A stretch of 64,000 nucleotides of DNA from an uncultured Erysipelotrichaceae bacterium (GCA_902791625.1 CADAWN010000001.1:35333-99332); one strand, 5' to 3'. Positions 1,464 to 52,465 are shown, counted from the stretch's first letter. Notes: generated by a model not told the origin, from the letters alone. Translations and numbers: made by a program.

Positions 1464-1477
1464 ACGTTTCACTCCTT

Positions 1478-4027: not shown

Positions 4028-4048
4028 ATCTAAAACCTCCTTTTTATC

Positions 4049-11467: not shown

Positions 11468-11481
11468 ATTAACTCACCTCT

Positions 11482-13317: not shown

Positions 13318-13344
13318 TCCTCTCACCTTCTCTTTCAAAAACTA

Positions 13345-13368
13345 AAGGCGACATTAATCTGCCGCCTT
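13345..13368 (-). terminator. Intrinsic-terminator-like hairpin after the 13367..14263 gene
   Basis: On the minus strand, AAGGCG-N12-CGCCTT is followed by a T-rich run. The hairpin overlaps the TAA stop. Confidence 0.45.
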
Positions 13369-14263: not shown

Positions 14264-14315
14264 AATAATCACCACCTATTCTCTACAATAAAGTAAATAT
14301 TACTGTTCTTATCTC

Positions 14316-14345
14316 TAAAAAAATAAGCGGTAGTAACTACCGCTT
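14316..14345 (-). terminator. Strong intrinsic terminator after paralog P4
   Basis: On the minus strand, AAGCGGTAGTTACTACCGCTT is followed by TATTTTTTT. Confidence 0.7.
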
Positions 14346-15684: not shown

Positions 15685-17666
15685 GTTGTTACCTCCTCAT
15701 CTATATTAATAAATTCATAGTTCGCTAATTCGCTCTCATTAACGAAGCCTTTAATTATATTAGAATTATTAACTTTAGCTATAATTAAATCTTCTTTTTC
15801 TAATTTTCCAATAATTTCTTTATAATACTAGTCTACAGTTTTTCCAATATAGTCATCATTTTCTGGTGTAACAAGACGAAGATAAGACCACTGTTGCTAA
15901 TCAATTATAGGTATAGCGCAATCCAATGGTAAACAAAAGACTTGATTCGATGTGGGGTGCATAATTACTATATTATATTTATCATTAATAGGTAAATCTT
16001 CTATTCTTTCTAAATAATCCATTGGTGAATATTTATTTTGCTAATTATTTGCCAAATCTTTTTCTAAATTATCTTTATAAATAGTTAAACGTCCTATATC
16101 ACCAGTTTCACTAGTTAAAGCTTTCATCCTTATATTAACTGTTGTTGCTTCGCCAGCAGCCTATAAACTTAAATTAATATTATCTAATAAAGCACAATTA
16201 TATAATTCAATCTAATAGTGCATATCTTCACCATATCTATCTCTTATATAAGTTTCTCCTATTAGTTTAAAATTATAAGGGAAATTCTTTTTATTTATAG
16301 TTACGCTTTGTCCAATAATTGTCCCCTTATCTGCTATTTCTCTAGTCCATTTGTAATAAGGTTCTCCTTTTTCAATAACGGCATAATTACCTGTAATAAC
16401 TGTACCATCTTTTTTTGTATAACTGTATTCATTAGGTTCATATGGCTTCATTGTATTAGGATTGTAAAAAACAGTTAATTTTTTCTTATTATATTCTGGC
16501 AAAAGACTAAAATTATAATTTTTAAGATTTTTATCAACATCAATAGCAAACCTTTGCTCTGCTATTTTATCATCAAACTAATCTAGTATTTTTCTATCTT
16601 CAATTCCACTATTAATAGGATTTATAAAATTAGAAACTGTGTTTATATTATAATTAAAATCTTCTACTATATAAAAAGTGCCTAAAAGAACCTTTGCTTT
16701 TAAAGTTTTTTCTTCCTCGTGTATATCAGTTATTTTACAAGAAACAGTAGTATATAAATCTACATAGGATAGCCATTTTTCCTTCTATTCTTCTTTCTAT
16801 TCAAATAAAATTCTTTTGTTGCTATTATTATCAAGAGTATGATAACATATGGTCACATCATCATCTGCCGCGATATTATCAAAATCAGCAGACTCTGGAA
16901 TTAAAGAAACATTACAAGATAGCCATTTATATTCATGAATATTATCAATAATTATTTTTTTATTACCATTGTTATCATAACTAGCGTTAAGAAGATTGGT
17001 TTCAAAATTCTCAAAATCATTTATTTGTAATTCCGCATTAACTAAATTATTTCCTACTTTATCTAAATCACTAAAATATAATCTATCATAAATATTTATA
17101 GTCTAATCTTTTACCTTAATAGGTGAATTATTTTTAGTAACGGTTACTCCCTTAAAATGTTTAAGTTTATCACCAACAATATATTCTTCCTAATTTTCTG
17201 CTTTATATTTAAAATCTCCATTAGAAACTTTTATATAAGCATACATAACTTTTTCTTCACAAGGAACATATACCTAAACCCAATCTACTCCTTCTGGCTA
17301 TTGCTCTGTTCTTTCTATTGTGTAAATATTTTTATCTTCATATATATAAGGATTCCACTTACCTCTTATTTTAATCTTAGATAATCCATATAAACCACCC
17401 CACATTAAACTCTAACTTGCGGGAGTATATAAAGCATCTTCTAAATTAAAGGTAACTGTTTTTCCATAATTCCAAATAACCTGTTCTGCATTACCTAGAC
17501 CGCCGCGAGCAGATGTCTGCTCGCTAGTCTAGTCTAATGATGATATTTTTAATGTATCAAAATGTAATACAGGTATATATATATCATCATCATATTTATT
17601 TTTTGCTATACCGTAAAGAGTTACATTTGCAACTTCTCTAATACCATACTATTCAAAAATATTCAC
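15681..17666 (-). CDS. Major-tail-protein-like paralog P3, 661 codons, TAG-containing
   Basis: GTG start at 17664-17666 follows GGAGGCG. The N-terminus reads NIFE*YGIREVANVTLYGI. The frame matches track ORF 16212..16502, and the stop is TGA at 15681. Confidence 0.6.
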
Positions 17667-17682
17667 TCTTTACGCCTCCTTA

Positions 17683-19641
17683 TTACATTACTATTATTTC
17701 TGAACTACCATCTATTGGAGTAAAACAACCATTTTCTTCTTGAATCATTTTTTGTCTTGTCTTATAAGTATTAATTTCCATTAAAACTTTAGATTTAGGT
17801 TGTGCAACTTCCATATTTAAATTAAATACTGTAGGTTCACCATCTGTCTATAAAGTTAATGTCTGTTCTGATTTAATTTTTGCCTATGGAATTACAATCT
17901 ACATATGCTCATCTTCAGATGTATCCCTATTTCTAATATAAGTTTCTCCAACCATCATATACATACCAGGCCATACATCACTTTTAACAGTAATCTTTCT
18001 AGCATCTAACTATTGATTATCATCGACAATAGTAAGAGATTTTATATAATAAGGTTCACCGCTATGGAACCAATAATCATCTAAAAATGGCTTCATAGTT
18101 CTTGGATTTACATAAGCCCATAATTTACCATCAAAACTTCTTTCACTATTTTTATCATCATAAATATTCATTATAGTAGTATCTTCATTTACTTTAGCAG
18201 TAACTTCTGATACTGTGAAAGTAGGCTCTTCTTCTATATCAGAAATCTTCTGTTCTTGTTTATTTTTATCTTTATAAGTAATAGTATAAGTTGTTGTAAT
18301 GATAGGCTCGCCGCCTTCTTCTGGTTCCTCTTCATGAGTAATTTTTTCTATAATTGGAACAGTAATACTTTCTATTGTTTCCTCTGTACCAGCATTAACA
18401 TATTTTATAATATAAACAGGAGTAATAGGCTGTTCCATATAAGAAGTTTTAATACTAATAATATCCTATTCATACTTTGTGATTAAGAAATAAATCAATT
18501 CATTAATACCATCAAATTTAATCCACATATCAAGACCTTTAAATTGATTTACATTAACTCCTTCTTTTGGTTTATACCAAATCGCTTCTACAACTTCTTT
18601 ACCTTCTTTTGTTACTGTAGTTTGTACTCCAACAAAAGCGTGATAATTATTATTATTATCTACTACAATAGCAAGATAGTCACAATCCTTTATTGACCTT
18701 TCATCATCTTTATTTTGAGCAGGTATATTATAAGCATTTTTTTTATCTTCGCCAGTTCCTGCAACCAAAACTGTATCACCTATAGTAGGAGATACATTAG
18801 GTTCATACCGTGTTAAATAATTTTTTAAGCTATTAATTTCTTCATTCTCTTCCTATTCTTTATCAACCGTATAAGCATCAAAAATAATATACGGTTTTAA
18901 ATTATTTGGCTCTTTTGCAGGTCCAATCTTATAAATAATAGCATCTTTAAAGTTTGAGTATGCAGGTGCCTCTCCATTAAATACTGAAACTTTACTATTC
19001 CAATCTATAGGATAGCTTCTGCCCTAAATATCAAAAAATCTATCAGGAACCTAAGCAATAGAACGTACTCTAGATTCAATAATAAGTCTCCAACGGTAAC
19101 TTCTATCTAAAGTCTATCCTACACCCTAAACTCTAGTGCCGTCAACAACATCTGAATTGATTAAATAATCATTATCTTTTGTCATTATTTTATTTTTATT
19201 ACTTTGTGGTAATAACTTACAAACTAAATTATCATTAGGGTCATTACTACTTCTAGGATAGATTGCACTATACATTCTTGACATTTTTCTTACTGGATTA
19301 GAACAAGTTTTAGATTCAGAGTTTATATCTATATGTCCATTTTTCCAATCAGAACTTAATATTCCTCCCCAACATAATCCTAAAGAAGCTGGAGTGCATA
19401 AAGCATCTTGTAAATTTATATTTAAAGTTTTGTTATAGTCCCAACTTATTAATCTAGCATTACCCTGGCCACCCTATGCCCAAGTACTTTCACCAGTCTA
19501 TTCTGTTGTAGAAATCTTTAAAGTATCTAAATACAATGCTGGAACATAATAAACGTCACCACTACCATCTGTTTTTTTATGTATACTATATATGGTTACA
19601 TCAGCAACCTCTTTTATACCATATTGCTCGAATATATTCAA
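17683..19641 (-). CDS. Major-tail-protein-like paralog P2, 652 codons, TAG-containing
   Basis: TTG start at 19639-19641 follows GAGGTGAAAGGA. Track ORFs 18010..18438 and 18466..18768 are in frame. I checked every codon in 17683-18010 and 18769-19641 and found only TAG interruptions. The stop is TAA at 17683. Confidence 0.75.
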
Positions 19642-19733
19642 ATCCTTTCACCTCACAATATATCAACCTTTATTTAATAGGAAAGGCTATTGAAAATAGT
19701 CTTTCAATAGCCAATCCAATTAATACTTATATA

Positions 19734-22082
19734 TTAATATTCAGTTGCGCCGATTGCATCCTTGTCAACTACACCATCAAGTGAAGTCTTAAAGAGTTCA
19801 GCATCGTCAAGAATATCAAGATTTTCAGTATCCTTAACCATTGTAGAACCGTCATTCTGCTCTTCATTGTCAACCATATTATACTTAATAAGTCTAACCA
19901 TTACTTTATCATCTGGACGAAGAACTTTAAGTTCCATATCAAATACAGAAGGATCTCCATCTGCTTCCATTGTAATTGTTTGCTCTCCGCCAATTTTAGC
20001 TTCTGGAATATTAATCTGGAATCTCTCTTCCTCTCCAGTTGATTTAGACTTAATAAATGTATCTCCAACAACCTTATATGTTCCAGGGAACTTATCTGCA
20101 GAGATTTCAATCATATCACCAAGGCTTTCTCCATCATAAGCGACAGAACGAGTAAACTTAATGAACTCTTCACCTTCAGCGATTGGAGTACCATCTGCAT
20201 AAGGTTCCATTGTTGCTGGGTCAATAAATACAGTACAAGCAAACATATCAGCCTCAGAAGGATAACCATTAGCATTTCCACCAGGTACAATAAAGCTTCT
20301 TGCAGCAGTAAATTTCTTTGTTACATCAAGCTTCTTAACTGGCTTAGTAGCTTTAGAAAGTTCATTTCCATCGGCACCAAACATTACAGCCATAGAAGCT
20401 GGTGAGAACAGTGCATCTTGAAGTGTAAGAGTAATCTCCTTACCGAAGTCCCAACCCATCAACTGACCATTTCCATGTCCACCAGTAGCAAATACTTCTT
20501 CAGCAGTTGCATTTAATGTAGAAACTTTTAATGTATCAAGGAAAAGAACTGGTTTATATCTCTTAACTTTCTTAAGGGTTTTATGAATTTTAATTCCCTT
20601 TACAGTACAAGTTGCTTCAAAAGTTTCATTATTAACAGTAACTTCTGTTGTATGGATAAGACCACTAGCAACAAGTTGTTTTGCCTGATTATCATTTACA
20701 AAATTACCTTCTGTAATCATCCAAGCAACCTTAGTTAAATCTTTCTTACCATTTCTATTAGCAACAAAGATAAGTCCAGAAGTTCCAATAATTACAAGTG
20801 CAAGGAATTCAGTTCCAGCAAAAATCTTATCTTGGTAATAAAGTCTGTTACCTGCTTTATCTAAGAATTCAAAGATACCATCTTCATCAAGAGCAAGTTT
20901 CTTTGCGTTCTTATTCTTTAACAGATAAATATATGCACCAGCGGCAGTATCTACTGAACCGTCAACCTTAACATAAATTGCTCTATTAGATATTTCAGAA
21001 CCAGTAGTTAACTCTACATCTAAAGTCTTTCCAGTTGCACTACCTGTTGCAGCAATTTCAGCAACGGCTTCTTTTACAGCCTTTAAGTTGTACTTAGCAT
21101 GAATATCGCCAACTTGTGTTCCATCTACTGAGAATTGATAACTATTGCCGTCAACTAAATCAGTATCTCCAGGATTAGGCTTATCATCGCTAACTTTATA
21201 TCCGCCTTGAATTGCATCTATACCAGAAGCGGCATTAATCTCACCATAATCAAGTACTAATTTCTTCTGTTTTAATGCATCAATAGCATCATTAATAGAG
21301 TTATGAACACCATCGTCCCACATTACTGCATTTGCAATAGCTTTATCTAACTTATCAGCAAACATAGTAGCATAACTTTTTGCGCCAGTTGCAGTAAAGA
21401 AATCTACAGTACCTACGCCATTGTTTCTACTATACTTATAACCAAGATATTTAGGATTATAATAACCCATTTCATCTTCAACTACAAGCTCAGCATAATC
21501 ATCATATGTAATATCATATGCTTTTGCTACTTTATAAGTTTTTAATTTAATTATTTCTTCATTGATTTCCTTTAAATCATAAGTGTCTTCTGTAAATTTA
21601 TTAGCTAAACCTACAACAACAACCTTCTCTTTTGAATAAGGGTCTGCGGCAAAATTATCATTAAAAGTAAGATTACCAAATTTTGTTGCAGAATCTTCAA
21701 AAGCATATCTTACACCAGTTTTAGCAATTATATTCTGTCTTTTTGCAAATAATTGACATACTTGCTCTGGATAAGTAAATTCATGAGATACAGCAGTTTC
21801 ATCTATATCTGTTTCTGGATCATCGTCATCTTCGTGTTTATAAGTAACACCAGTAATAATATCAGCGTCAACAAAAACATAAGCTTTAAAGCCATCTTCT
21901 GTTCCAACACCATTATCATCTAAAGGATAAACATTTTTTAATTCAAGGCAGCTTCTTAAAATTGAACCATCAGTAATTTTTCTTTGAGATTCATAAGCTT
22001 CTTCTTTCTGTTCAATCTTGTAAAAAGTAACGTCACAAACGTCCTTAATACCATATTTCTCAAAAAGGTTTTGACTAGCCAT
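19734..22082 (-). CDS. Putative major tail protein P1 (782 aa), free of TAG
   Basis: This is an intact track ORF with AAGGAGG upstream. It shares N-terminal (NLFEKYGIKDVCDVTFY), central (PVLFLDTLKVS..GGHGNGQLMGWDFGKEITLTLQDALFSPAS) and C-terminal (FPGTYKVVGDTFIK..MEADGDPSVFDMELKVL) blocks with P2-P4. It lies between the connector genes and the TMP and is visibly more GC-rich than P2-P4. Confidence 0.6.
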   Translation of the reverse strand: MASQNLFEKYGIKDVCDVTFYKIEQKEEAYESQRKITDGSILRSCLELKNVYPLDDNGVGTEDGFKAYVFVDADIITGVTYKHEDDDDPETDIDETAVSHEFTYPEQVCQLFAKRQNIIAKTGVRYAFEDSATKFGNLTFNDNFAADPYSKEKVVVVGLANKFTEDTYDLKEINEEIIKLKTYKVAKAYDITYDDYAELVVEDEMGYYNPKYLGYKYSRNNGVGTVDFFTATGAKSYATMFADKLDKAIANAVMWDDGVHNSINDAIDALKQKKLVLDYGEINAASGIDAIQGGYKVSDDKPNPGDTDLVDGNSYQFSVDGTQVGDIHAKYNLKAVKEAVAEIAATGSATGKTLDVELTTGSEISNRAIYVKVDGSVDTAAGAYIYLLKNKNAKKLALDEDGIFEFLDKAGNRLYYQDKIFAGTEFLALVIIGTSGLIFVANRNGKKDLTKVAWMITEGNFVNDNQAKQLVASGLIHTTEVTVNNETFEATCTVKGIKIHKTLKKVKRYKPVLFLDTLKVSTLNATAEEVFATGGHGNGQLMGWDFGKEITLTLQDALFSPASMAVMFGADGNELSKATKPVKKLDVTKKFTAARSFIVPGGNANGYPSEADMFACTVFIDPATMEPYADGTPIAEGEEFIKFTRSVAYDGESLGDMIEISADKFPGTYKVVGDTFIKSKSTGEEERFQINIPEAKIGGEQTITMEADGDPSVFDMELKVLRPDDKVMVRLIKYNMVDNEEQNDGSTMVKDTENLDILDDAELFKTSLDGVVDKDAIGATEY

Positions 22083-22097
22083 AAATTCTTAACCTCC

Positions 22098-22847
22098 TTA
22101 CTTAGTAAGCGACGCATCGCCCCAATATTTAGTCTTTAATTTGTCTGCTTCGGCACCAGCACAAAGCATTTGAATGTCCTATTCCCACTTTTCTTTTGCC
22201 TAATATCTTGCAATTCGTTTATAAAAAGCATAAACAGTACATTTCTCTAGGTTAATTCCGAAAACTTCAGCTATTTCAAGATATACTGAAAATGGCATCC
22301 CCTCAGTGTCTTTTTCAGCTTTTTTCTTTTTTGCAGCTTCCACTTTCTCTCTTAACAAACGCATTTTTCGTTCACCAGGTGTTTCATTTTTTGGTGGTGG
22401 CGGCTTAATTGCCTAACCATTCTAAATCCTTAAAATTTCCTAGAAATCTTTAAAATTATCATTGTTAATTATACGTCTTTCTATAGGATTACCAATAACA
22501 ACTGATGATATTTCTGGAAGAATTATTGTTTTCTCCTTGATAAAAGTATTAAACATATCCTAAACCTCTAATAAAAAACTATCATTTTGTTCTGCACTTG
22601 ATAAAAGATAATCAAGAGGTTTAATTTTATCGGGAGATATATCTTCTCCAGTTTTTTCTTTTATATGCTAAGATATGGCTATTTCATCAAGCAATAAGGT
22701 AGATAAATAAGTTTTATATTTAGAATAATCCATTTCTATTATTTCTTTAATAGTTAATGGATAAACCTTACATACTTTTGATAATGAACTTCCACAACCC
22801 ACATATGCCTAAGCTTTAATATCTTCAATTTGATTAATTGAAAGCAT
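22098..22847 (-). CDS. Hypothetical head-tail joining module protein, 249 codons, TAG-containing
   Basis: I translated every codon by hand. ATG is at 22845-22847 and TAA at 22098. Seven in-frame TAGs lie at 22179, 22200, 22413, 22422, 22440, 22560 and 22668, plus one at 22809. Confidence 0.65.
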
Positions 22848-23349
22848 TAATTTCAAAATCCATTACATAAGAACCCATTTGTTTACTTAGAGAACCCAAA
22901 CTAAAACCATTATATGTAATCTCTCCTAACCCATTAATACGCTTGCCCTAAATACTTCGTCTAATTTCACTCATAATAGCAAATGGTCGTAAAGTATCTC
23001 CAGTAATTAACCACTCACTAAAAGGACAATATACGATTATCTAAAGTGTTAAATTTTCATTATCTATATTAGAATCATTCGTCTATCCTAAAGTATATAA
23101 AAGTACAATCTTAGATTTAGTATTTTGTTCTTCTGGAGTTAAGAGTGGAACTACTCTTATTAATTTATTTAATAACGATAATCCATCAATAGTATTAGGA
23201 TGTTTTTCTTTATTTAAAGGGTCTAAATCTGTGTTTTCTAACAACATTAAAAGGTTCTAATTTTTTGTTAAGGTTTTAGCAACCTTTATAAGATTTACGC
23301 CAAGCTCCTGGCCATACCGTACTTGTGATTCCATATCATCACCTACCAT
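22834..23349 (-). CDS. Hypothetical head-tail joining module protein, 171 codons
   Basis: I translated every codon by hand. ATG is at 23347-23349 and TAA at 22834. In-frame TAGs lie at 22948, 23041, 23083 and 23257. The gene overlaps its neighbours, as expected in an operon. Confidence 0.65.
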
Positions 23350-24064
23350 TTAGGAAGAAGTTTTTATCTTCTCCTACCATTATATCTTCCGAAGAGCGCG
23401 GCTCTTCTTCCTGTATTAGTTTCTCTTCTATTGAAATATAAGAAACCCCCTCTATACTCATATCGTCTATACCAGCAATTTCCCAGCCTTTATTATTATA
23501 TTCAAAATACTGTCCCTTTTGAATTAAATCATTGGTAGCGGTAATAAAACCTCTATGTGTATTTGGCTCTCTATATTGAGAACGTTTTATAAAAAATTCG
23601 TCAATAATATAAGAGGTAGAAGCATTTATTACTTTTGAAGGAGCAGTAATTATAGTATCTCCATATTCATTTGTTAAATTTATTTCAGTATCTAAACAAA
23701 TTACTACAAATAACTAATATCCTTTTGTTATATTATTTTCAACAAAAAGTACTAACCAAATTTTATCTACTTTTCTCTTATCTATTATTTGTTTTATATT
23801 AAGTATATCACCAGTATGTAGTGCGGCGGCACTAACTGGTAATAAAAGATTACTAATTAACTTACTCTCATTCCATTTATTAGGCTATAAAGAACAAGTT
23901 ATATTAGTATTCTCATTGTTTATTTTATATATATCAGCTTTATAAGCACTGTTCTCTAAAAAAAGATTATTAAACTCATTAATTTTCCTAGTATTTATCC
24001 TTTCCTATCTTGTCCTGCCGCCCAGATTCATTCTTTTTAAATATACTTCATCAAGATAACTCAT
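23339..24064 (-). CDS. Hypothetical virion or connector module protein, 241 codons
   Basis: ATG at 24062-24064 overlaps the upstream stop (ATGA). The stop is TGA at 23339. Manual translation shows only a few TAGs. Confidence 0.5.
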
Positions 24065-24333
24065 ATTACACCTATTTTGTCAAACAAATTCATACACTCG
24101 AATATTGTTTTTCGATAATATTTAAAAGATAAATAGCGGCAAGATGCAAGTTTAGAATAAAGGGTATAATATTCAATTGTTTTGCTATTGTCATTATACC
24201 CCATTAACTCAATTAAAATAGTGTCTAAATATTTTTCCCATTCTCCATCTTTTTCTCGTTCACGAAGTAGGCCAAAAAGTCTATTCTTCATTTTATCTTT
24301 GTAAGCTTCAATAATAGCGTCCTGTCGTTCCAC
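24061..24333 (-). CDS. Hypothetical small connector-module protein (90 aa)
   Basis: Track ORF with a GTG start about 10 nt after GGAGG. It contains no TAG. Confidence 0.55.
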   Translation of the reverse strand: MERQDAIIEAYKDKMKNRLFGLLREREKDGEWEKYLDTILIELMGYNDNSKTIEYYTLYSKLASCRYLSFKYYRKTIFECMNLFDKIGVI

Positions 24334-24790
24334 TATGTTTTAAACCTCCACCAGCTAATTTTCTAAAATTAAAAGGTTTTTTATTTGGAGAACGATAATA
24401 AAGTCTTTCAACTTTCTTTGCTTCTTCTAAAACCTAGTCTTTCAAAGCAATAAAACTTTTTAATAAGTTAGCCTATGAAAAATCTTTTTCATCATACTAA
24501 GTTTTTACATTTTCCCAAGAATCTATAGTTCGTTTTAACCACTCATATTTCATATAAGTGGCTAAAACTTGTATTTCTGGCTAACCCATTTTATTATCCG
24601 TAAAACACTATCTATTTTCGTCTATATAAAGACTACATCTAGGAAATTTAAAATAAGGAATTGCCGAGTTTAAGAAAGCCCGCCAGTCTTTCAAAAACAT
24701 CTCTAAATCTTCTTCAGAACAATACTAAGCCCAATCATCTTCATTAACTTTACTAAGAAAGGCATCATACACATCCATTAAATTTACCAT
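24308..24790 (-). CDS. Possible head-tail connector/adaptor (gp6/gp15-like), 160 codons
   Basis: ATG at 24788-24790 follows GGGAGG. The N-terminus MVNLMDVYDAFLSKVNEDDW resembles head-tail adaptor N-termini; this is a weak match made from memory. TAGs are in frame and the stop is TGA at 24308. Confidence 0.4.
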
Positions 24791-24814
24791 TATCTTTGCC
24801 TCCCTAAAATTATA

Positions 24815-25294
24815 TTATTCCTCTTCCATCTAATGTTTACGAGAAATTCCAATTAAAATATCTTTTCCAGTTAAATCCTTTAAAAATTTACATTTTTCAG
24901 TATTAACAATTTCTTTTTCAATTGCATATATAATCAAATTATCAACCTAAGTCCTAGGAACTGTTGTCATTATTTTTATAAACTCTTCCATTGGAGTTGT
25001 AGTTAATAATTCTGTCATTTTCTTTTCATCAAAAGCGATAATATTTTTTGCCTCTGTTGCATCTGCGTCTTCTATACCTAAATCTATTTTATCCTGTAAG
25101 TCAGGGATATATAAAATACCAGAATAAATTATATTTTTAAATCCAGTATCCCACATTAATTCTCTTACAGTATCAAAAGGAATTCCAAAAGTCTATCCTC
25201 TTGTTTTCCAAGTTCTATTAACACCATATTCTGGCTTTCTAACTGTTACTGTATTGTTTACCATACTAGTAATCTTAACCATTCTATTCTCCAT
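24815..25294 (-). CDS. Hypothetical head-module protein, 159 codons
   Basis: ATG at 25292-25294 follows AAAGGAGGAA. I hand-checked the codons on both flanks of track ORF 24947..25156 (24815-24949 and 25154-25294). TAGs lie at 24830, 24947 and 25193, and the stop is TAA at 24815. Confidence 0.65.
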
Positions 25295-25385
25295 ATTTAA
25301 TTCCTCCTTTTAACTCAAAATGGTGAGTGAGTTTAATACCCACTCACCACTTCCGATATATAAATTCTTTCTTTTGTTTTTATGA

Positions 25386-26531
25386 TTATGGATTTGGCTT
25401 ATAACCGTTTGTAGTCTTACCAGTCCAGTTTGCTACAAATTTAGTAGGATACTGTGTAGGATAAGCTTGTGTATCCTGAAGGTCTGTATTTACATATACA
25501 CCCCAATCATTATTGGTAAGAATAGCTACACCAACTTTCTTATAAGCTTCTACTTCCATTGTTCTATCTCTACCCTTGAAATCATCAACAATAGTATCGC
25601 CTTCGAAAACAATCTTAACTGGCTTACTCTTACCATTAGGGAATACATAAGCAAGAGCAGGATTTACTACAGTAGTAGTATTGTTATCGTCAGTAAATGA
25701 CTGTGGAATTTCAACAATAGGGTTGCCACGGAAAGTCTTAATTCTACCATACTGAGCAATCTCTTCAATGTTTCTAGGATTATATACAGGTGTTGCAACA
25801 CCAGTAGCACCAGAATTTCTTGCCCAAGCCATTGGCATACCAATTGCCTCAGGTCCCATAGCCTGTACGAATTCAGGAGCAGCGAAAATTGTAACTCCGC
25901 CATCACCATAAGTACCAGCAATGGTTACAAGTTGCTGCATACCATCTGGATCAAAGCCGGCACTAATAACCTTATTTCTTGCAGGACGATCATCAGCATT
26001 AACTGCGGCAATAAGAGCTTGCTGAATTAAACCATAAATTGCCTCAACCATACCCTCAAGAAGAATTTCAGCAACTTCTGCAACATCCTCTTGACCACAA
26101 ATATATCTTTCAAAGTCAATAATACCAGTACCACCAATTGCGCTAGCACTTACTTCAAAAGTATCGCTATCAAGTCTGAAAGCCTCATATACACCAGAAG
26201 GTGCAACTGCTGTTACAAACTGCTTAGCTCTACGTCTACCTCTCTTAACTACAAACTGTGCTTTTTCATTATTTGCAACCTGCTTAATTTCAGCAAACAT
26301 TGACATAAATTCTTCTACAGTCTTAGGAAGAACTTCATCAAAAGCCTCTTGCATAATTTCAAAAATATCTAATCTATTTCTACGATAAGAATTAAAATCA
26401 TAAGCAAGCTCATGTAAAGCATTAGAGGTTGCCTTCTTTATATCTTCAACTTGATATTTAGTAGGATTTGGAGTTGTTCCTCTGAATGAATGAACAATTA
26501 AATCCTTAATCATTTGCTTTTTATTCTCCAT
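25386..26531 (-). CDS. Major capsid protein (HK97-fold type), 381 aa, TAG-free
   Basis: Intact track ORF with AAAGGAGGT upstream. It follows the scaffold gene. The sequence has MCP character (..AVAPSGVYEAFRLD..GGVTIFAAPEFVQAMG..). Its GC content is elevated and its codon usage looks optimised. Confidence 0.75.
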   Translation of the reverse strand: MENKKQMIKDLIVHSFRGTTPNPTKYQVEDIKKATSNALHELAYDFNSYRRNRLDIFEIMQEAFDEVLPKTVEEFMSMFAEIKQVANNEKAQFVVKRGRRRAKQFVTAVAPSGVYEAFRLDSDTFEVSASAIGGTGIIDFERYICGQEDVAEVAEILLEGMVEAIYGLIQQALIAAVNADDRPARNKVISAGFDPDGMQQLVTIAGTYGDGGVTIFAAPEFVQAMGPEAIGMPMAWARNSGATGVATPVYNPRNIEEIAQYGRIKTFRGNPIVEIPQSFTDDNNTTTVVNPALAYVFPNGKSKPVKIVFEGDTIVDDFKGRDRTMEVEAYKKVGVAILTNNDWGVYVNTDLQDTQAYPTQYPTKFVANWTGKTTNGYKPNP

Positions 26532-26626
26532 TCTATCTCAACCTCCTTTTATTATGCTGTAGGCTTATTGATAAATTGAATCTTAAATGACAGAGTATTG
26601 TCTGCATTATAATAAGGTTCAACTAT

Positions 26627-27205
26627 CTAAGCGTATACATTACCAATTGCATCTGCAACAGGAGCACCAATTACTAATTTACCATTAGATGCATTAGTTA
26701 CATAAGCATAAACTGTAGTACCTGCTGCAATATCTTCTTGAACTTTCTTCCATAATTGTACAGAAGGAGTGTCATCTTCTTCAGCGTCTGCCTCAAAATA
26801 TGCCTCATCCCAGGCAACTGTGTTAGTACAAATTCTCATACCAGGATCCATATATCCAATTTTTGGTAAGAACTCTCCAGTAATCATAGCAAAATTTCTA
26901 CGACCAGGAGTATACTGATTATAAATCTTTTCTGTTGAATAATTAATTCCCATTGGGAAGCCCTTATCACTTAAAGCTTTTGTAGGAACTGTAGCAGTCT
27001 TATTAGCCTTATCAACCATTAAGAACGCTCCAACTTCTGCATAAATTTTGTTATCATTTGCTTCAGCGGGGGTCATAGGGAAATGAGCAGCGAACTTCTC
27101 TGGGTCAAGCTTGCACTGTGCTTCAACTTGTCCAGCACGATAAGCCCAAGACTGGCTCATTTCAAGTTGTCCAAAACCTTTGCAATCAAAAAATTGAATA
27201 GCCAT
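26627..27205 (-). CDS. Capsid-associated protein (decoration or auxiliary role), 192 aa, TAG-free
   Basis: Intact track ORF between scaffold and MCP. Its start overlaps the scaffold stop (TAATG). Confidence 0.45.
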   Translation of the reverse strand: MAIQFFDCKGFGQLEMSQSWAYRAGQVEAQCKLDPEKFAAHFPMTPAEANDNKIYAEVGAFLMVDKANKTATVPTKALSDKGFPMGINYSTEKIYNQYTPGRRNFAMITGEFLPKIGYMDPGMRICTNTVAWDEAYFEADAEEDDTPSVQLWKKVQEDIAAGTTVYAYVTNASNGKLVIGAPVADAIGNVYA

Positions 27206-28035
27206 TACTTATTACCTCCTAATGTTTTATCAATATAATCCTCCAACGCAGAGTTGCCTTTTTCAACATCATCTGCATTTCCTGTGTAAATAAGAGTCTG
27301 GCTCTGTTCTTGTTTACTAAAGATTGTTGGAGTATTTTTTACAGCAGCAACACATACTTCTTTCTCAAAATCTTCTACTGAATAATTAGCAACATCATTC
27401 TCTAAAGTAGAATATTTTTCTGAAGAAATGTATTCTGAATATTTTTCGAGAATAGATTTCTTTTGCTCTGTTTCGATATTAGCCTTAAATTGAGCAAGTT
27501 CTTCCTTCTCTTTATTTAAGTCAGAATTTAAAGTTTCAAGGCTAGCTTTTTCAGCCTTAATAGCTTCTAATTCTTTCTTAGTTTCTTCTAAACTATTATT
27601 TAATGTTTCAATTTCAGTTACTTTTTCTTCAACTGTCTTATTAGCTTCTGTTAATTGAGAATTAATTTCCTCTTTTTCTGCTGTTAAGTTCTCAATTGCT
27701 TTTACATTAGCATCATAAGTTTCTTTAACTTCGCTTAAGTTATTATTAATTGCCTTTAATGCTTCAAGTGCTAACATTTCATCTTTTGTTACATCAGTAA
27801 TTTCAACTTCCATCTTTTCACCAACAGTAACACTTTCATCAGCATTTACAGTATAATAAGCTCTAATATACTTATCTTCATCTACACTAGCGGCAACTGC
27901 ATAATCAGCATAAACATCCATTAAATAATACTCAAATTTCCATCCGCCTTCTTCATTGAAATTAGGATTAAGAGCAGAAGCAATCTTACGAGCTTTATCA
28001 TTATCAGATAATCTAAATAAGAGTTCCTTTTCCAT
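27205..28035 (-). CDS. Scaffolding protein, 276 aa, TAG-free
   Basis: Intact track ORF with a long acidic coiled-coil centre (..LTAEKEEINSQLTEANKTVEEKVTEIETLNNSLEETKKELEAIKAEK..). It lies between the portal/protease-like genes and the MCP. Confidence 0.7.
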   Translation of the reverse strand: MEKELLFRLSDNDKARKIASALNPNFNEEGGWKFEYYLMDVYADYAVAASVDEDKYIRAYYTVNADESVTVGEKMEVEITDVTKDEMLALEALKAINNNLSEVKETYDANVKAIENLTAEKEEINSQLTEANKTVEEKVTEIETLNNSLEETKKELEAIKAEKASLETLNSDLNKEKEELAQFKANIETEQKKSILEKYSEYISSEKYSTLENDVANYSVEDFEKEVCVAAVKNTPTIFSKQEQSQTLIYTGNADDVEKGNSALEDYIDKTLGGNK

Positions 28036-28098
28036 GTGCTTATCTTCCTCCTTTTTATTGTTATTTGAATCAATATTCTTTATGTAAGAAATTAACTC

Positions 28099-28830
28099 CT
28101 AAACATCCTTTGCTAGACTATAGAACGCCGCACCTTCGAAGCATGGCTCAACTGCTGTACCAAGTGCTTGAAGTCCAAATAAACTACCATCAGTAAAATG
28201 GAAATAAGGTAAACCATCAGCTTCCCATATTCTCCATTCACCTTTATATGTATAAGGATTAATTTCCATTGATTGTGAAGAACCAGGTATTAACTTTGCC
28301 TCTTGATAAAGAGAAGTATATAAAAGTACATCTGCACAAGCGTATGTTCTTATAACACCATCATTATCCATGTGGTCTTCCCAAGCAAAGTTAGGTTCTG
28401 CCATTACAATACCATAAATGCGGCCGTCAGAATTTTTCTCACCATGATCTTCGAAATCGACATCATCTTGATTAAAAATACCTTTAATTGGTGCATATGG
28501 TAAAGATGCTATTAATTTATTTGCAAAATCCTCTGATATATAAGTACGATTTCTATTTAAACCTCTATAGAAAATTCGTACTCTGCACTTGGATTTGCTA
28601 TCATCGAATTTCTCAACATTACCATATAAACTAACATCGAACTTCAGATTTACTTCCTTACCTAAAACCGCATCTTTACCGTATGTTTGAGGAATATACG
28701 CTAAGTTTGTAGTCGCGGCACCGGGTAAGGAGATGGGTAATGGAGTTCCAATGCCAGTAATTTCATATGGAGCAGTTCCAGTTCCAGTACTAGTAATCTA
28801 TAAAGAATTACTTGTTATTAACTCTCCCAT
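28099..28830 (-). CDS. Prohead-protease-like or head-maturation protein, 243 codons
   Basis: ATG at 28828-28830 follows GGAGGAGGG. The frame matches track ORF 28099..28404, with one TAG near the N-terminus. The gene lies between portal and scaffold. The family assignment rests on position plus weak resemblance. Confidence 0.4.
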
Positions 28831-30374
28831 TATTTACCCTCCTCCTTCTCTTCTTTATTTTCTGGCTCTTCTTTTTCTTTATTTTCTGCTTGCTATTCTT
28901 TTTCTTTATCTCTACCTTCTGAACTTTGCCCCTTAGTATCGCCCATTGGTTCTCCAGAAGCTTTTCCAGACTATGTATATGAGGATTGTAAAGGTTTAAG
29001 TATTTCATCAAGTTCAAGCAAATCATTTTCAAGAGCCTTAAGATTAGCTAAATTAGTCTAATCTAATCCAGTAACAGCAATAGGAGTAAGGAAGCTATAT
29101 CCAAATGATGCCTATTTTTCTGCTCTTTCGCTATATTCTTTAGCATTATATCTTGTAACTGGAAGAATAATTAATCTAAACTTAACTTTATCATTAGCAA
29201 ATTTATAATTTAATAAAGTTGTAAAGAAGTGAGCAAATCTATCTCCTAATACCATCATCATAGATAAATCGTTATTTGTTGAATATTGTAAACCAGCTTC
29301 AGTTGTAGAGAAAAAGAACTCTTTAGATAAACCAGCAGACTCATAAATTAAATTTAATACATTATTAACTTCTGTCTTTTGGTCATCTTTACTACTTAAA
29401 TCTAATAAATCAATTTTTCCATAAGTTGTAATAACATCAACATCTTCATTATTTTTAAGCATTTCACAAGTTCCCCTGTGCATTTCATATGCTTCATCTG
29501 GTTCAAAAATTAACTCTCCGTTATTATCAATAGGCATTATCTAAGCAATAATTCTTTTTAAAGCCTATTTATTTCTTTGCTTATCTAATTCCTTATAATC
29601 ATCTAAATCAACAAGTAAAGGAATTAAGTCTAAGAAAAATGGTCTTTCTTCAAAAAATGAAAAATAAATTCCCATTTCCGCAGGTAAGAAAATCCACTTA
29701 CTTTTTTTATCTTTTGTATTTTTATTATTTTTATATTTCTTATACTCCTTTTGGATGAGTTTAGGATAAGTTCTTAATATTTCTGTTCTTAGTGTATTGT
29801 CTCTAATACTATCAAAAAACTCTAAATTAAATTCAACTATATCAATATCATCCTAGTTTTTAAACCTTGTTCTACAATAATTAAAAGGCAAATCCTAAAT
29901 TACAACCTTATCTCCATTATCGTGTAATAAGCCATAATAAGCTCCCGTTACTAAAATATCTTTAGCAAAAATAGCACATTTTCTCTAAATTTGGAAAGTA
30001 GTACAAAAATCAGTAGCATCATAATAAGCTTTTTTAATAGCTTTATCCGTAATCTATACGGGTTTAGTTCGTCCAGTGTCGTGTTTAAGATAAGGAACAA
30101 CTATCCAAGCATAAGATAAAAAAGTTGCATAGTGAATAATGGCTCTTTTATAAATACCACTAATTGTAAAAAAGTATTTAGATAATTCAGCTCTTTCAGT
30201 ACTTGTTCCACCTTCAACTATTTGCATTATATCTTCTTTTTTATATTTTTTAAACTTAACTTTCTAATCTTTTTTATCGCTTTTAATATATGCACTATCA
30301 GAGGTTGCTATCATTTCACTTATAGCTTTTTTAAACTACGTTACTCTATTATCTGTCGCAGGTGTGCTATCCAT
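28830..30374 (-). CDS. Portal protein, about 514 codons, TAG-containing
   Basis: ATG is at 30372-30374, with an alternative TTG at 30383 nearer to GGAGGTGA. The frame matches track ORF 29112..29537. The stop TAA at 28830 overlaps the next ATG. Size and position directly after TerL fit a portal, as does the acidic C-terminal tail. Confidence 0.65.
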
Positions 30375-30385
30375 ACTTATCAATA

Positions 30386-32182
30386 TTACTCACCTCCACG
30401 TCTAAAGAAAACTAACTATCTTTTTAGTCCTCTATTTTTCTTCTTAGCGTTTTCTTGTCTTTCATAATCGCAAACTCTAGATACACCCATTTCAAAAGCT
30501 GAAAATTTATCTTTTGTCATACGAGTATTTATTTGTTCAACAGCAAGTTTATTACTTGTTGCAGTTTGTTTAATCCTTAAGTTAACAATTTCATTAAATA
30601 AAGAGGTTGTTAATTCGTGTGGAAGTAAACGAGCAGCACGTTCCTCAATAGACATTTTTTTACTTAATGCTTTACTTAATAGTTTTTCTCTAGCCTTCTT
30701 TTCAGAAATCAAAAAATTGATACAACCACTATTGATTTTTGAAATTAAATCTGAGTGGAAACGACTGTTATCATCTGGCGTAGCTTTAACACCATATAAA
30801 ATTTTTGCACAATTTTTAGGCTAGATAGCTTTATATTCATCTCTATTTGAAAAGCCGTAAGCAGGAAAGATTTCTCCTGTTCTTGGGTCCTATGTAGGTT
30901 TAATCATCTCGTCAGCTAAACCAACACCTAAACCATTTATATCTATTACACATTCTTTAGGATTAAAATTCTTAATTAGCCTTTTTAAATCCGCAGCCTA
31001 ATAGGTAAACTATTTTTCTGTTTCAGTTAATCCTAAAACATAAATATTTACCAAATTTATTCGATAAGGCTCTCCTGGAAATACTTTTAAAACTGTTACA
31101 ACAGTCTAACAAAGTCGTCTCGCAACATCCACTGCTAATAAGTAAAAAGCTTTAGAATCTTCTCTAATTTTTTCCTTGACTTCTGGGTTATTAAGTTTTC
31201 TATGAATTTCCAATTTACTATATTTAATCCAAGCTTCTTCTGTAGAACCTACAAATCTACTCATATACTCTTTTGCAAAGCCAGCTTCACTAAAAGTTGA
31301 AGACATTCTCATTTCATTCAAGAAGTCTTTAGAAAGTAACCCAGTCTTTACTGGAATACGATAATCAAAGCCCCAAACAAAAACGTTATGTGGCTAAAGT
31401 ATTGAAAGTTCAAATAATTCAACAGTTTTATCATAAGCAAAAGTGTTACGTTCTGCGGCAGAAGAAATCCACATTTGAACTTGTTGCGGCTCATATGGAT
31501 TTTTATCCTAGTTTGCCATTGGCCTATCAACGTTCAATAGCGGAAGAATAATCTCGGATATATCATCTGGTAAATGGTCCCTGAACTCGTCAAGGATGCC
31601 CGCAGTAGCACGATTACCACGCGTTGAGTTCAAAGGTGACATGATGTCCATTATAGAGCCATTTCTAAAGGTTAATTTAACATAATCAGGACCAAAGTTA
31701 CCATCACCAACAATCTCTTCTTTAAGCAGCGGCATTAAATCCCATAACTAGTGAATCTTTTGATTAGCAATTTTAGAACCCTATGCTTTACCAGGAGCGC
31801 ACTAGAAGACGTGACTTCCTGGTCTAAATATACAGATTAAATATAAAGCTAATATACAAATAAAAGACTTACCTGCGGCACGAGGTGCAATTGTCAATAT
31901 ACGCCCATGTCGTAAACAAACTCTTAAAAATAAAATCTAAAAAAACTTTAGTTTAAATTTAGATGTAGATGGTGTAATTTGTTTTAAATATAAATCTGGA
32001 TATGTACTCCATAACCAACAGTAATGTTTATATAAATCAAAATTCCTATCAATTCTATCTTTTGTTATAACAGCACCTTTTTCTAATTCTATACCATCTT
32101 TAACAAAAGTCTATGCTGTTCTAGCAAGAGTGTAATGAATTGTATTTAATATAGCGGAGGGCTATTCAATATTTATATCCAT
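30386..32182 (-). CDS. terL: Terminase large subunit, about 598 codons, TAG-containing
   Basis: ATG at 32180-32182 follows ACGGAGGT. Track ORFs 30416..30712, 31106..31321 and 31508..31735 share its frame. There is a Walker A-like APRAAGKS motif, a GILDEFRD (Walker B-like) motif and a nuclease-half-like C-terminus. The stop is TAA at 30386. Confidence 0.8.
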
Positions 32183-32196
32183 TTTATTTACCTCCG

Positions 32197-33126
32197 TTAA
32201 ATTTCTACTTCAAATTCATCATCAACTAATTTTTCTCCGCCTTGCTCTTTAAGATATTCTCTAAACTCTTTTTCGTTGAAGGTTTCTCCACTAAGTTTGG
32301 CACTAGTTTTTAAATTTTCAATTCTTGCTTCAATTTCTTCAGGAATATTAGTATCGCTAACATATAAATACTAATTCCACAATTTTATATCTTTTATTGA
32401 AAAATCAACTTCATCTCTTACAACATCATCATAATATTCATTAACCCAACCTTTTTTCTCTAAGTATGCGAAAATTTCACCAACAGAACTAAATTCATTA
32501 GCATCCTAAATAATTTTAGGAGTAAAATTAGCAAGTTTTGATAACTAATCATAAGATTTTAATTCTTTTGAAAAATCAGAACCTTCTCTAATTTTTTGTT
32601 CAATCAAAAGTGAAATCTTACATAGTTTTAATGCCTGGTCTTCATTTAATGCTCCAACAATATTCTAACTATCTAACATACCTTTATGAAGATTTTCAAG
32701 GTACTCTAATTCTTCATCATCGTAACTCTATCCCCATTTCATAGCTAATTTTCTTTTTTTATTCTCTCTTACACTAGGCATTGCATCAGTAACTCTTTGT
32801 TCCTCTTGAAGCTGTAAATAAACCTCATTATACATTTTCCAATCAAGAGTATCATAAGGAGCAGAACGAAAAATACTTGCATAAATACCAAAAGCATCTT
32901 TGCCCTATCCCTAATAAATTTTTTCCCATTGCTCTGGAACAAAAGGAATATCAGCCCATTGACATATTTTATCAACAGTATTCCACTTATTCTCAGATTC
33001 TTCAATCATTTTTGCTAAGCAGTCGCGGCATATTGGTAAACTTCCATTATGAATAGGAGAATTAACTGCAATATAATTGGCAGTTGTTTTTTCTTGCTAG
33101 CATTTTAGACATTTTTTTAATGCCAT
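32197..33126 (-). CDS. Putative small terminase / packaging accessory protein with an N-terminal zinc ribbon, 309 codons
   Basis: ATG at 33124-33126 follows AGAGGTGA. Manual translation gives MALKKCLKC*QEKT..LPICRDCLAKMIEESE.., open to TAA at 32197 with about 9 TAGs. The gene lies immediately upstream of terL. Confidence 0.4.
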
Positions 33127-33158
33127 TTATATCACCTCTTCGATTATTCTTATAAAAC

Positions 33159-33255
33159 ACTTTGTGCCGCGACTGCATAAAATTTTGAATATGTCTAGAC
33201 AAAAACTATGCCTATGTTAATCACTATTCAAAACTTTTTGTAGTCGCGGCACAAA
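33159..33255. repeat. Long GC-clamped inverted repeat between the 33275..33583 gene and the terS-like gene
   Basis: TTTGTGCCGCGACTGCATAAAATTTTGAATA (33161-33191) is nearly the reverse complement of TATTCAAAACTTTTTGTAGTCGCGGCACAAA (33225-33255). The loop is about 33 bp. Confidence 0.8.
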
Positions 33256-33274
33256 ATAAGTAATAATTTAATTT

Positions 33275-33583
33275 TTATTCTCCAATTTTTTCTTCTTTTG
33301 TTTTTATCTCGCTTTTTTCTCTAAACTTTTTTCTTAATTCAGTATTAAAATTCTCTCCTCTCATTGCAAACGACTAAGCAGCAGTTAAAAATTTTTTCTA
33401 TTCTCTTTTAGGAAGTTCAGTATATTTTGTAACCATATCGGTCAAATACTCTTCAAAGTCATCTTGTTCTTCTACTTTTAATAGTTTGCCAAAAGTAAGT
33501 AAATCAGTTATCTAGAAATACTATAAATAACTAATGAACTATAAAGCATCTTTAGCTACTTTATCTTTTCTTTTAAATTTCAT
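33275..33583 (-). CDS. Hypothetical small late protein, 102 codons, TAG-containing
   Basis: ATG at 33581-33583 follows GGAGGATT. Manual translation is open to TAA at 33275 with 5 TAGs. Confidence 0.45.
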
Positions 33584-33668
33584 TTTTAATCCTCCATTAA
33601 TGTAAGCTTCTTATGTAGGTGGATTTTCTAATAATTTTGTAGTCGCGGCACCGAGTCCACAATAAGCT

Positions 33669-34856
33669 TTACTTATTATTCTACCTTAGCTCTCGATCGC
33701 ATTGCTTACATCTACCTGTAAGCCCGTCTAAAGCTTTTGCCTTTCTAACAAAATTCCTAGGGTCTCTCAACAAAACCTTTCCACATCTGCTACATTTCTT
33801 CCAAGCTTTTTCATAATCTTTACTTAAAAATTCATCATAATTTAATTCAACTGCATTACTAATCAATTCTAAGCTTTTGTTCCAAATTGTACTAATATAA
33901 TTATCTTTATGGTCAATACCTAATTCTTTATTAAGTTTTTCTCTAATTTCTTTAATCTAAAGTTTCTATTTCTTTCCTTCAACAATTAATTTCTACTAAG
34001 GACTTAAATTAGCTTTTTCAATATAAAAATCAAGTGTCCAAAGTATATTGTGAATTAAACTATCTGGCTAATTTCTAACCTAATCTTCTAAATCTAAATA
34101 AAACTAAATTAAAAAATATAAATGGTCAATATTCCTAAAATCTAAATAAGGTTTTCCACTCTAAATAATTTCTTCTTCGTTTTCAACTGCTTTAGCAACC
34201 CTCTCATTATCATAATAAGGATTCTCAAATTTAAAATCATTAATAGAATTTTTTAATCCTCTTGGTAAAATAGGGAAATTAACCTATTTGTCTGTACTAT
34301 TTCCATGAAATTCTGCCTTGTTCTTTTTTGCCCTAAAGGTAGGGTAAAAAGCGTCAAGCAAATCATACTATTGCTAATACTATTCAATTAACTAGTGTCT
34401 TAAATAATAAAGCTAAGTCTAGTTTAAAGTTGGGGTATCACTTGTCTTTTCTATTTTTCCTGTATTCTCATCATAAACCCTTTTTAATCTATCAATGGTT
34501 TCCCATAGTTGCTAAAATTCTGATAAATGTTCAACTTTATCTCTATAATCCTTAATATCGGGTTTAACTTTTTTATAAATATTCTTTTCTTTTAAGAAAA
34601 TATTTTCGTCAAAAGTTGGACTTTCAAGTAAAGCTTCTAAACTAACAGTTCTATTTTTTTGGAAAGAACTAAACTTTGCTTTAATCTAAACTTCTTTTCT
34701 ATCAACTATGGAGGTGCCATCTTCGTCCTTTCCATAGAGTACATAATTGGTAACGGTTTCTAATTCGGTTTTTGTTAGTGTAGATAAATCAATTGATTTA
34801 ATTGCTTCAAGTCTATCTTTTGCTGAAACTATATTAAAGTCTAGTTTAAACTTCAA
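33669..34856 (-). CDS. Putative late transcription regulator (sigma-70 region-4-like HTH plus C-terminal CxxC..CxxC zinc ribbon), 395 codons, about 18 TAGs
   Basis: TTG start at 34854-34856 lies 5 nt after GGAGGTGAG. The frame matches track ORF 33681..33866. The segment ANLSP**KLIVEGKK*KL*IKEIREKLNKELGIDHKDNYISTIWNKSLELIS looks like an HTH, followed by CSRCGK..CKQCD. It is the first gene of the late operon. Confidence 0.4.
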
Positions 34857-34876
34857 CTTTTCTCACCTCCAATTAT

Positions 34877-34905
34877 ATTATACTCGAAAATTTTTGGAAA
34901 GTCAA
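34877..34905 (-). promoter_or_regulatory. Sigma-70/sigmaA-type promoter for the late-regulator gene
   Basis: The minus strand reads TTGACT (34905-34900), a 17-nt spacer, then TATAAT (34882-34877). The RBS and TTG start lie about 15-25 nt downstream. Confidence 0.65.
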
Positions 34906-35071
34906 GAGATTAGGTTTAGACTAAGAATTTAGATCTAAGTTGGAATTTTGGGGGGATAGATCTAAATTGAAAATTTTAAGGATATGATTTTTGTTCTAGG
35001 GGATAGGGGTTCAGAAAAAATGAACAAATTGTTAAAAATTTGTAGCCCCCGTATGAATTAGTTAAGTAAAA

Positions 35072-35108
35072 TGCTACAAAAAAAAATAGGCGGTCAAACT
35101 TGACCGCC
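35072..35108 (-). terminator. Intrinsic terminator after gene 35115..35618
   Basis: On the minus strand, GGCGGTCAAGTTTGACCGCC is followed by a T9 run. Confidence 0.75.
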
Positions 35109-37932: not shown

Positions 37933-38047
37933 AGAGGAACACTCGTTCCCCTCTATTTTATTAACTTAATATGAACATTGCGATAGAATTGAATATGAAT
38001 AAAATATTAACAATGCGATATATCAAAAGAAAAAGAAAAGAGAGTTT

Positions 38048-52435: not shown

Positions 52436-52465
52436 ATTAATATTTTACTCAAAAAATTCTACTAT

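Follow-up and report, generated by a model that had tools for sequence, protein, structure and literature searches.

An amber-recoded gene behind a host-type promoter heads the late operon of a probable gut siphovirus

We analysed a stretch of 64,000 nucleotides (nt) deposited under an uncultured Erysipelotrichaceae bacterium (GCA_902791625.1, CADAWN010000001.1:35333-99332). This whole stretch, referred to as the window, probably stems from a large gut siphovirus of more than 100 kb that groups with Enterococcus phage EF1 and the amber-recoded 'Phassvirus'. All positions are counted within the window, and the gene of interest and the late operon lie on its minus strand. The gene (33669..34856) encodes a phrog_5767 family protein and opens the late operon; it carries 18 in-frame TAG codons read as Gln and is preceded by a promoter of the sigma-A/sigma-70 type. 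Gene, TAG codons and promoter are confirmed as a real feature, and the TAG load is a property of the operon as a whole, not of this gene in particular. Taken together, a late operon started from a host-type promoter and held under an operon-wide TAG lock, with this gene as its first cistron, is on balance the probable explanation.

The coding sequence starts with TTG at 34856, ends with TAA at 33671-33669 and comprises 395 sense codons, among them 18 TAG but no TGA and no internal TAA. An earlier interpretation made without database searches (the sequence-only reading) had counted 395 codons and about 18 TAGs, and both numbers were exact on recount. As it had also proposed, the full-length protein cannot be translated under the standard code: the frame is broken 18 times under table 11, and since the first in-frame TAG is codon 57 (34686..34688), standard decoding would leave a 56-residue N-terminal product. 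The strong ribosome-binding site that it described is GGAGGTGA at 34863..34870, 6 nt before the start codon. The near-perfect promoter was found as TTGACT-17-TATAAT at 34877..34905 (-35 at 34905..34900, -10 at 34882..34877), 20 nt ahead of the start codon, with a score of 11/12 and no TG extension. Full-length homologues of the gene numbered 336 in one search and 930 in a representative search (E ≤ 0.001).

The meaning of TAG was assessed by comparing 30 TAG-recoded with 38 standard-code homologues from IMG/VR loci. Gln is the most enriched residue (4.2-fold) at the TAG columns in the standard-code homologues, and codon 163, a TAG in the window, is Gln in 38/38 of them. As the TAG columns, and that of codon 163 above all, align to Gln, TAG is read as Gln in this gene. 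Across the window, which has a GC content of 30%, open reading frames (ORFs) of at least 100 aa cover 0.45 of the sequence under code 11 versus 0.80 under code 15, and the late genes terminate in TAA or TGA, never in TAG. Of 58 crude gene calls in the early region (34.9-64 kb), 45 are without TAG, and several others end at a true TAG stop. One such early TAG stop (39588-39590) sits within an intrinsic terminator hairpin (39581-39602), and the early paralogues at 46099-46506 and 48991-49335 stop at the same aligned TAG, the second with a tandem TAG-TAA. Since early genes stop at TAG whereas the late operon reads it as Gln, the phage runs two codes.

Further early coordinates with TAG as a real stop are 56001-56414 and 37762-37974; active suppression would give such TAG-ended early proteins short C-terminal extensions. 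In-frame TAGs also occur within the early region, at 52445-53224 (259-aa protein, 3 TAGs) and at 61176-62198, where a 340-aa protein with 9 TAGs stands in otherwise TAG-free surroundings. The latter combines three CxC/CGC zinc-ribbon-like repeats with a weak DUF2726 nuclease-like C-terminus and is possibly a homing-type nuclease.

Recoding is not particular to this gene. Its Gln codons are 18 TAG, 4 CAA and 0 CAG, and the resulting TAG share of 82% is among the highest of the operon, beside four smaller genes at 83-87%; in most late cistrons TAG makes up 38-87% of the Gln codons. TAG is used sparsely in the YonD-like gene (0.15) and in a 217-aa gene (0.10), and it is completely missing only from the major capsid gene, a 782-aa tail protein (19734-22082) and a 90-aa gene. 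That the most abundant virion proteins do without TAG points to inefficient suppression. The same coupling to the operon is seen among the relatives: in all loci with downstream code-15 genes, which form 19 lineages at ≤90% identity, this gene holds 2-23 TAGs, and in all standard-code loci it holds none. Among the recoded sequences, the first TAG lies between columns 12 and 138. A conserved 56-residue 'stub' was considered and rejected, as just 7 of these 30 sequences have their first TAG at column 57; an eighth also shows TAG at this column, but preceded by another.

Beside these, the two genes directly upstream of the capsid gene (26552-28830) hold very few TAGs, while in the genes around them TAG accounts for roughly half or more of the Gln codons. 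The distant homologues L080, L082 and L083 (about 26% identity) contain 3-5 in-frame TGA rather than TAG, and their downstream genes are best read with TGA as a sense codon. With TAG-recoded, TGA-recoded and standard-code homologues, the protein family spans three genetic codes.

The promoter is of the kind that serves the early genes, as the sequence-only reading had stated: 29 host sigma-A-type matches of at least 11/12 occur in the early region versus 3 in the 34.8 kb of the late region. Because such matches are rare in the late region and the element is conserved in relatives, the promoter is more than a chance match. A TTGAC(T/A)-17-TAT(A/C)(A/C)T element precedes the gene in 58 of the 73 loci that have at least 330 nt of upstream sequence; it is usually TTGACTTT, often has a TG-extended -10 and mostly lies about 50-100 nt ahead of the start codon. 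It is present in recoded and standard-code loci alike. For example, the protein of the standard-code locus L015 is 81% identical to those of the recoded loci L017 and L019, and all share the same promoter. Since standard-code relatives retain this promoter without any TAGs in the gene, it predates recoding.

The gene is also bounded as a first cistron would be. Upstream of the promoter, an intrinsic terminator (GGCGGTCAAGTTTGACCGCC followed by a T-run, 35089..35108; 8-bp stem, 6 GC pairs) closes a TAG-free early gene (35115-35618), insulating the late promoter. Downstream, the 85-nt intergenic spacer to the next cistron (33584..33668) contains no stable hairpin or terminator (folding z=-0.5), and many relatives leave no gap, their next cistron beginning at the stop codon or overlapping it. 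In the absence of a spacer terminator, and with relatives often lacking a gap, the gene is predicted to be co-transcribed with the downstream packaging and structural genes.

The early region (34900-64000) differs in layout. Its 29 promoters of at least 11/12 mostly have a TG-extended -10, and a scan of 26-46 kb found 30 terminator-like hairpins versus 5.3 expected, nearly all in the early part. As these promoters and terminators are dense and lie on both strands, nearly every small early gene looks like its own transcription unit.

The favoured explanation would then work as follows. Host RNA polymerase with its primary sigma factor most likely starts the operon at TTGACT-17-TATAAT, judging from the motif and its conservation. 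With no terminator or strong internal promoter after the gene, a single transcript would carry it together with the packaging and structural genes. Every cistron except those for the most abundant virion proteins would require TAG-to-Gln suppression, and full-length gene product, terminase, portal and tail proteins would appear only once a suppressor tRNA is active. Recoding would thus act as an operon-wide translational lock, matching the published model, and tandem repeats upstream of the promoter probably add DNA-level control or mark a packaging start. The sequence-only reading had gone further and taken suppression, rather than transcription, as the switch for late-gene expression. This exceeds the evidence, as standard-code relatives share the promoter, recoding is not gene-specific and the regulator call is a plausible guess.

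That regulator call rested on a sigma-70 region-4-like helix-turn-helix (HTH) and a C-terminal zinc ribbon. The ribbon was borne out: C355, C358, C383 and C386 form a C-terminal C4 zinc ribbon (33693..33800), among 104 family representatives no column other than these four CxxC...CxxC cysteines is invariant, and PHROG zinc-ribbon profiles match as well. The sigma-like identity was not. Sigma70_r2 (region 2) is absent from the protein and from the 104 representatives, a Pfam scan of the protein gave no significant match, and neither did NCBIfam or PDB sequence searches with the single protein or with 24- and 104-sequence profiles. AlphaFold models of a 68%-identical homologue (predicted local distance difference test score, pLDDT, of 80) and of its C-terminal domain (pLDDT 87) have a predicted helical fold. 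Foldseek found no PDB match to them below E=0.2 (the top hits had E=0.2 with the full model and E=0.69 with the C-terminal domain; SigB at rank 31, probability 0.03), and searching BFVD returned uncharacterised gut-phage homologues only.

For the HTH, the outcome is divided. Residues 284-330 (33867..34007; LSPQQKLIVEGKK...NYISTIWNK) form a candidate LuxR/sigma-region-4-like HTH with weak statistics, in which the NYISTIW helix is nearly invariant in the family. The segment follows the pattern L-S-x-x-Q-x-x-I ... eI ... NYIS, in register with DesR, GerE and RpoE region 4. The best hit of the PDB profile search was the LuxR-type HTH of DesR (weak, E=0.027); hhalign against Bacillus subtilis GerE gave the same register without significance (E=0.021), and against Escherichia coli RpoE it aligned 27 columns in region 4 only (probability 0.2%). 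Sigma70_r4_2 weakly matches 2 of 104 relatives (best E=0.0026), and together with DesR and GerE this makes three weak but independent comparisons that place residues 284-330 in register with LuxR/sigma-4 HTHs. TIGR02937, the sole NCBIfam sigma match, weakly matches 1 of 104 (E=0.004). Signals thus converge on one segment (E 0.003-0.3), but none is statistically solid.

The product matches phrog_5767, labelled 'sigma factor', with E=7.6e-20 (residues 13-388 versus profile positions 60-391 of 393), and this profile matches 95 of 104 relatives. The label may derive from the record of Geobacillus virus E3 GP4, which is deposited as 'sigma factor', shares only the C-terminal 156 residues with the family (hhalign probability 97%) and contains no sigma domains. 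The name is therefore an unverified annotation that our tests do not support. The RinA, ArpU and LtrC families gave no Pfam or NCBIfam match in the protein or its 104 relatives; both libraries include RinA/ArpU models.

The genomic position of the gene offers circumstantial support for a role in late transcription. The order gene, (PhoH), YonG-like, large terminase subunit (TerL) recurs in Enterococcus phage VRE9_2 and Geobacillus E3. In SPbeta and Enterocloster phage CB473P1, the head of the same module is occupied by YonO instead, and hmmsearch with the family profile found no homologue in SPbeta (1-70 kb), FADO or CB473P1. Conversely, EF1-type Enterococcus phages and Geobacillus E3, which carry the family at the module head, are not among the tblastn hits of YonO. 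A large TAG-free YonO-like ORF was not present in the early part of the window, and the 782-aa TAG-free ORF is a tail paralogue. We tentatively propose, as a possibility somewhat short of an even chance, that the product, which combines a probable LuxR/sigma-4-like HTH with the C4 ribbon, binds DNA as a factor in late-gene expression.

Several points weigh against the favoured explanation and the role of its first gene. The protein has no statistically solid similarity to any characterised transcription factor, and the apparent complementarity of YonO and phrog_5767 is based on few cultured phages and on the sensitivity of tblastn. A gene that activates its own operon is circular logic unless the product acts elsewhere. 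Being near consensus, the promoter provides, at the level of its sequence, no reason for late timing. Finally, neither the window nor the roughly 16 kb beyond its right end nor 60 related loci yielded a CUA suppressor tRNA with ARAGORN and Rfam, so that the decoding agent is assumed from related phages. The scan beyond the window covered about 9.6 kb of the near-identical contig L093 past the right end as well as the relatives L097 and L098, with most of the genome unseen.

Other tRNA-related features were recorded during these scans. The window carries a tRNA Arg-ACG gene (63200-63275), an exact-match scan of IMG/VR with the window tRNA-Arg returned nothing, and L093 (1-10000), just past 64 kb, carries arrays of tRNA genes for Ile-GAT, Ile-TAT, Met, Cys, Trp, Thr, Ala and Arg-TCT. 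L097 and L098 contain a T4 Rnl1-like RNA ligase and a kinase/HD-phosphatase gene, resembling a tRNA-repair pair.

The DNA between the terminator and the promoter bears on what else the gene might do. Tandem direct repeats abut the -35 (34916..34976), consisting of two 20-nt copies at 34930-34976 (TAGATCTAA..TTTT, spacing 27) and a degenerate third copy, TTAGTCTAA. In the window as in L004, L014, L016, L025, L039, L058 and L067 (8/8 loci), the -35 is preceded by tandem repeats, in 2-5 copies with a period of 17-39 nt, each unit combining a phage-specific word with an A/T tract. This arrangement suggests either an extra DNA-level control of the promoter, which would act via a fast-evolving phage factor, or a pac-type packaging site or genome terminus. 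Further upstream lies a GC-rich element followed by CTACAAATTT (35036..35050), to which related blocks exist in some relatives and which may belong to a pac site or genome terminus. Where conserved (L001, L004, L015, L020-L024, L027, L030-L032, L044, L045 and L058), a GC-rich block followed by (T/C)(A/G)GCAACAAAT is found 40-125 nt upstream of the -35; the window version (35036-35050) is GGGGGCTACAAATTT.

The second of these options leads to a different explanation of the gene, in which the protein is a DNA-binding factor for packaging initiation, recognizing pac in the manner of a small terminase, and the upstream repeats are the pac site. The gene heads the terminase/portal module, A/T-tract tandem repeats lie directly upstream of it, and the pac and cosB arrays of SPP1 and lambda resemble such repeats. 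Moreover, about 25 of 80 IMG/VR contigs end inside the gene or within 3.5 kb upstream of it, the SPbeta opening point is at the head of the equivalent region (bioRxiv 10.1101/2021.11.22.469490), and the zinc ribbon is similar to the one at the N-terminus of the YonG-like protein beside TerL. However, the NYISTIW putative recognition helix is near-invariant although the repeat words differ from phage to phage, and with its 395 aa and C-terminal HTH the protein does not resemble known small terminases, for which Foldseek gave E-values above 2. In addition, PhoH, polymerase and endonuclease genes separate the gene from TerL in the Enterococcus and Geobacillus phages, and the YonG-like protein, so annotated in phage PJN02, is the better small-terminase candidate. 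We regard a packaging role as unlikely.

The model of the sequence-only reading, by which the early mRNA gives only the 56-residue stub until a suppressor tRNA allows synthesis of the full activator and thereby late transcription, would make the code the master timer. It accounts for a promoter of the same host type as the 29 early ones, for a gene that is among the most heavily recoded of the operon (82% of its Gln as TAG) and recoded in 19/19 recoded lineages, for the use of TAG as a stop in early genes, and for a gene in the position of a late-transcription determinant. Against this, the gene would be co-transcribed with its presumed targets, given that the window has no terminator and many relatives no gap after it, and the downstream cistrons are themselves nearly all laden with TAG, which makes TAGs in the regulator unnecessary for gating. 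The 38 standard-code relatives possess the same gene and promoter, so that timing must be set otherwise, and the repeat array next to the -35 hints at DNA-level control. In view of the scattered first TAG (columns 12 to 138), no conserved stub has been selected, and the regulator function itself is putative. This model is thus quite improbable.

A bolder version is given a slim chance. Here, host polymerase would transcribe the operon head from the onset of infection, the first cistron would stall at TAG 57, and accumulating suppressor tRNA would permit synthesis of an HTH/zinc-ribbon factor that boosts or licenses late transcription in a translation-gated feed-forward timer; the factor might act at the TTGACTTT promoter or prevent premature termination of the 33 kb transcript. 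If true, the code switch would stand upstream of the transcriptional programme, and phrog_5767 would represent a new class of late-transcription factor that replaces YonO here. That the ORF is a decayed pseudogene or chance ORF whose TAGs are true stops, as the 18 interruptions under table 11 might imply, is refuted by hundreds of full-length homologues with 52-68% identity across the TAG positions, a frame without TGA or TAA breaks, the alignment of TAG columns to Gln and the same TAG pattern throughout the operon, and has practically no probability left.

The rest of the late operon (1..33583) runs off the left end of the window with its distal tail genes. Behind the gene follow a small protein (102-aa ORF, 33275-33583), the YonG-like protein (32197-33126), TerL (30386-32182), the portal (28830-30383), the YonD-like protein (27205-28830), the TAG-free major capsid YonB-like protein (25386-26531), a set of four consecutive tail-protein paralogues (14344-22082) and a 2472-aa tape measure (4049-11467), all on the minus strand. 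Neighbouring genes of relatives (L001, L004) match Pfam YonG_N, YonD_N and YonB, and because these families occur in SPbeta order, the late module is of the SPbeta type. A blastn search of 30-37 kb against GenBank phages gave no match. The tail paralogues (446, 661, 652 and 782 aa) share the N-terminus MN(I/L)FE(Q/K)YGIKEVADVT... as well as C-terminal blocks, and only the 782-aa member is free of TAG. The N-terminal CxxC...CxxC ribbon of the YonG-like protein (32197-33126) weakly matches the C-terminal ribbon of the family of the gene product (33693-33800); the match was seen in phage FADO (L089 5935-6936; hmmsearch domain E=3e-4).

A short motif recurs throughout this DNA. GCCGC occurs 106 times in the window compared to 12 ± 3 expected from dinucleotide shuffles, with (G)TGCCGC as the extended motif, and a 5-15-fold enrichment exists in close and mid-distance relatives of either code, whereas distant ones as well as SPbeta, E3 and FADO do not show it. 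The motif may serve as a Chi-like or another host-related DNA signal. The 17-mer GGTGCCGCGACTACAAA appears twice, at 33636-33652 (33652..33636 on the strand of the gene) in the spacer behind the gene and at 28706-28722 inside the YonD-like gene. A specific late promoter or terminator formed by the GC-rich motif 3' of the stop codon was rejected, since (G)TGCCGC is over-represented genome-wide and the spacer RNA is unfolded.

As it stands, the locus is a well-documented further example of the published pattern in which late genes are recoded, and our analysis leaves the name 'sigma factor' for phrog_5767 without evidential backing. If the product does control late transcription, the locus would be a testable case of a code change that gates a transcriptional cascade and so reaches beyond individual late proteins; there is a modest chance that a real code-gated transcriptional timer operates here. 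The comparative set of 19 recoded lineages, 38 standard-code and 3 TGA-recoded relatives, with the gene in all and the promoter in most, constitutes a natural experiment on how and why phages recode.

Compared to known regulators, the product differs from LuxR/GerE proteins and sigma-70 region 4 in that E-values reach only 0.003-0.3, region 2 is missing and Foldseek similarity is insignificant. RinA-type proteins have about 140 aa and act at a promoter downstream of their own gene, whereas this protein has 395 aa with a zinc ribbon and is encoded inside the operon, behind the promoter. The likeness is in position: RinA, LtrC and ArpU, on which the late (morphogenesis and lysis) operon of Gram-positive siphoviruses depends (PMC3152322, PMC3753634), are likewise encoded directly upstream of packaging genes, the order here being gene, 102-aa ORF, YonG-like, TerL. 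The phrog_5767 proteins of E3 (GP4), EF1 and VRE9 share the synteny upstream of YonG-like and TerL, and the Enterococcus homologues reach 23% identity across 97% of the query; none has a Pfam sigma domain, and 'sigma factor' is a putative name.

With SPbeta, the phage shares the YonG_N/YonD_N/YonB families in the order YonG-like, TerL, portal, YonD-like, ..., YonB-like, and a long one-strand late operon that begins near the probable opening point of the genome, which in SPbeta lies between yonR and yonP (bioRxiv 10.1101/2021.11.22.469490). SPbeta relies on its phage polymerase YonO to initiate the late operon upstream of yonK (Forrest et al. 2017, PMC5467207). Here, in contrast, a host-type -35/-10 promoter and a phrog_5767 protein stand at the head, and SPbeta lacks a homologue.

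The closest parallel is with code-15 phages. A dual-code layout with recoded late genes has been described by Borges et al. 2021/2022 (bioRxiv 10.1101/2021.08.26.457843), and TAG-to-Gln phages with recoded late genes by Peters et al. 2022 (PMC9523058); a role of recoding in regulating lytic genes has been proposed in print. This literature is without discussion of a recoded putative transcription factor heading the late operon, or of its sigma-A-type promoter. A dual code is also known from a related gut phage group with EF1 among its relatives (Babkin et al. 2023, PMC10607447), and related Phassvirus genomes carry three CUA suppressor tRNA genes (PMC10607447); none was found here in the 64 kb window or about 16 kb beyond. 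The phage of the window resembles code-15 phages in its low GC content, its standard-code early genes and its structural and packaging genes with TAG as Gln, and in that the code flips over a short evolutionary distance, here between the 81% identical L015 and L017. Like Phassvirus, for which this has been reported, it has Enterococcus phage EF1 among its relatives, and a homologue of the gene is present in EF1.

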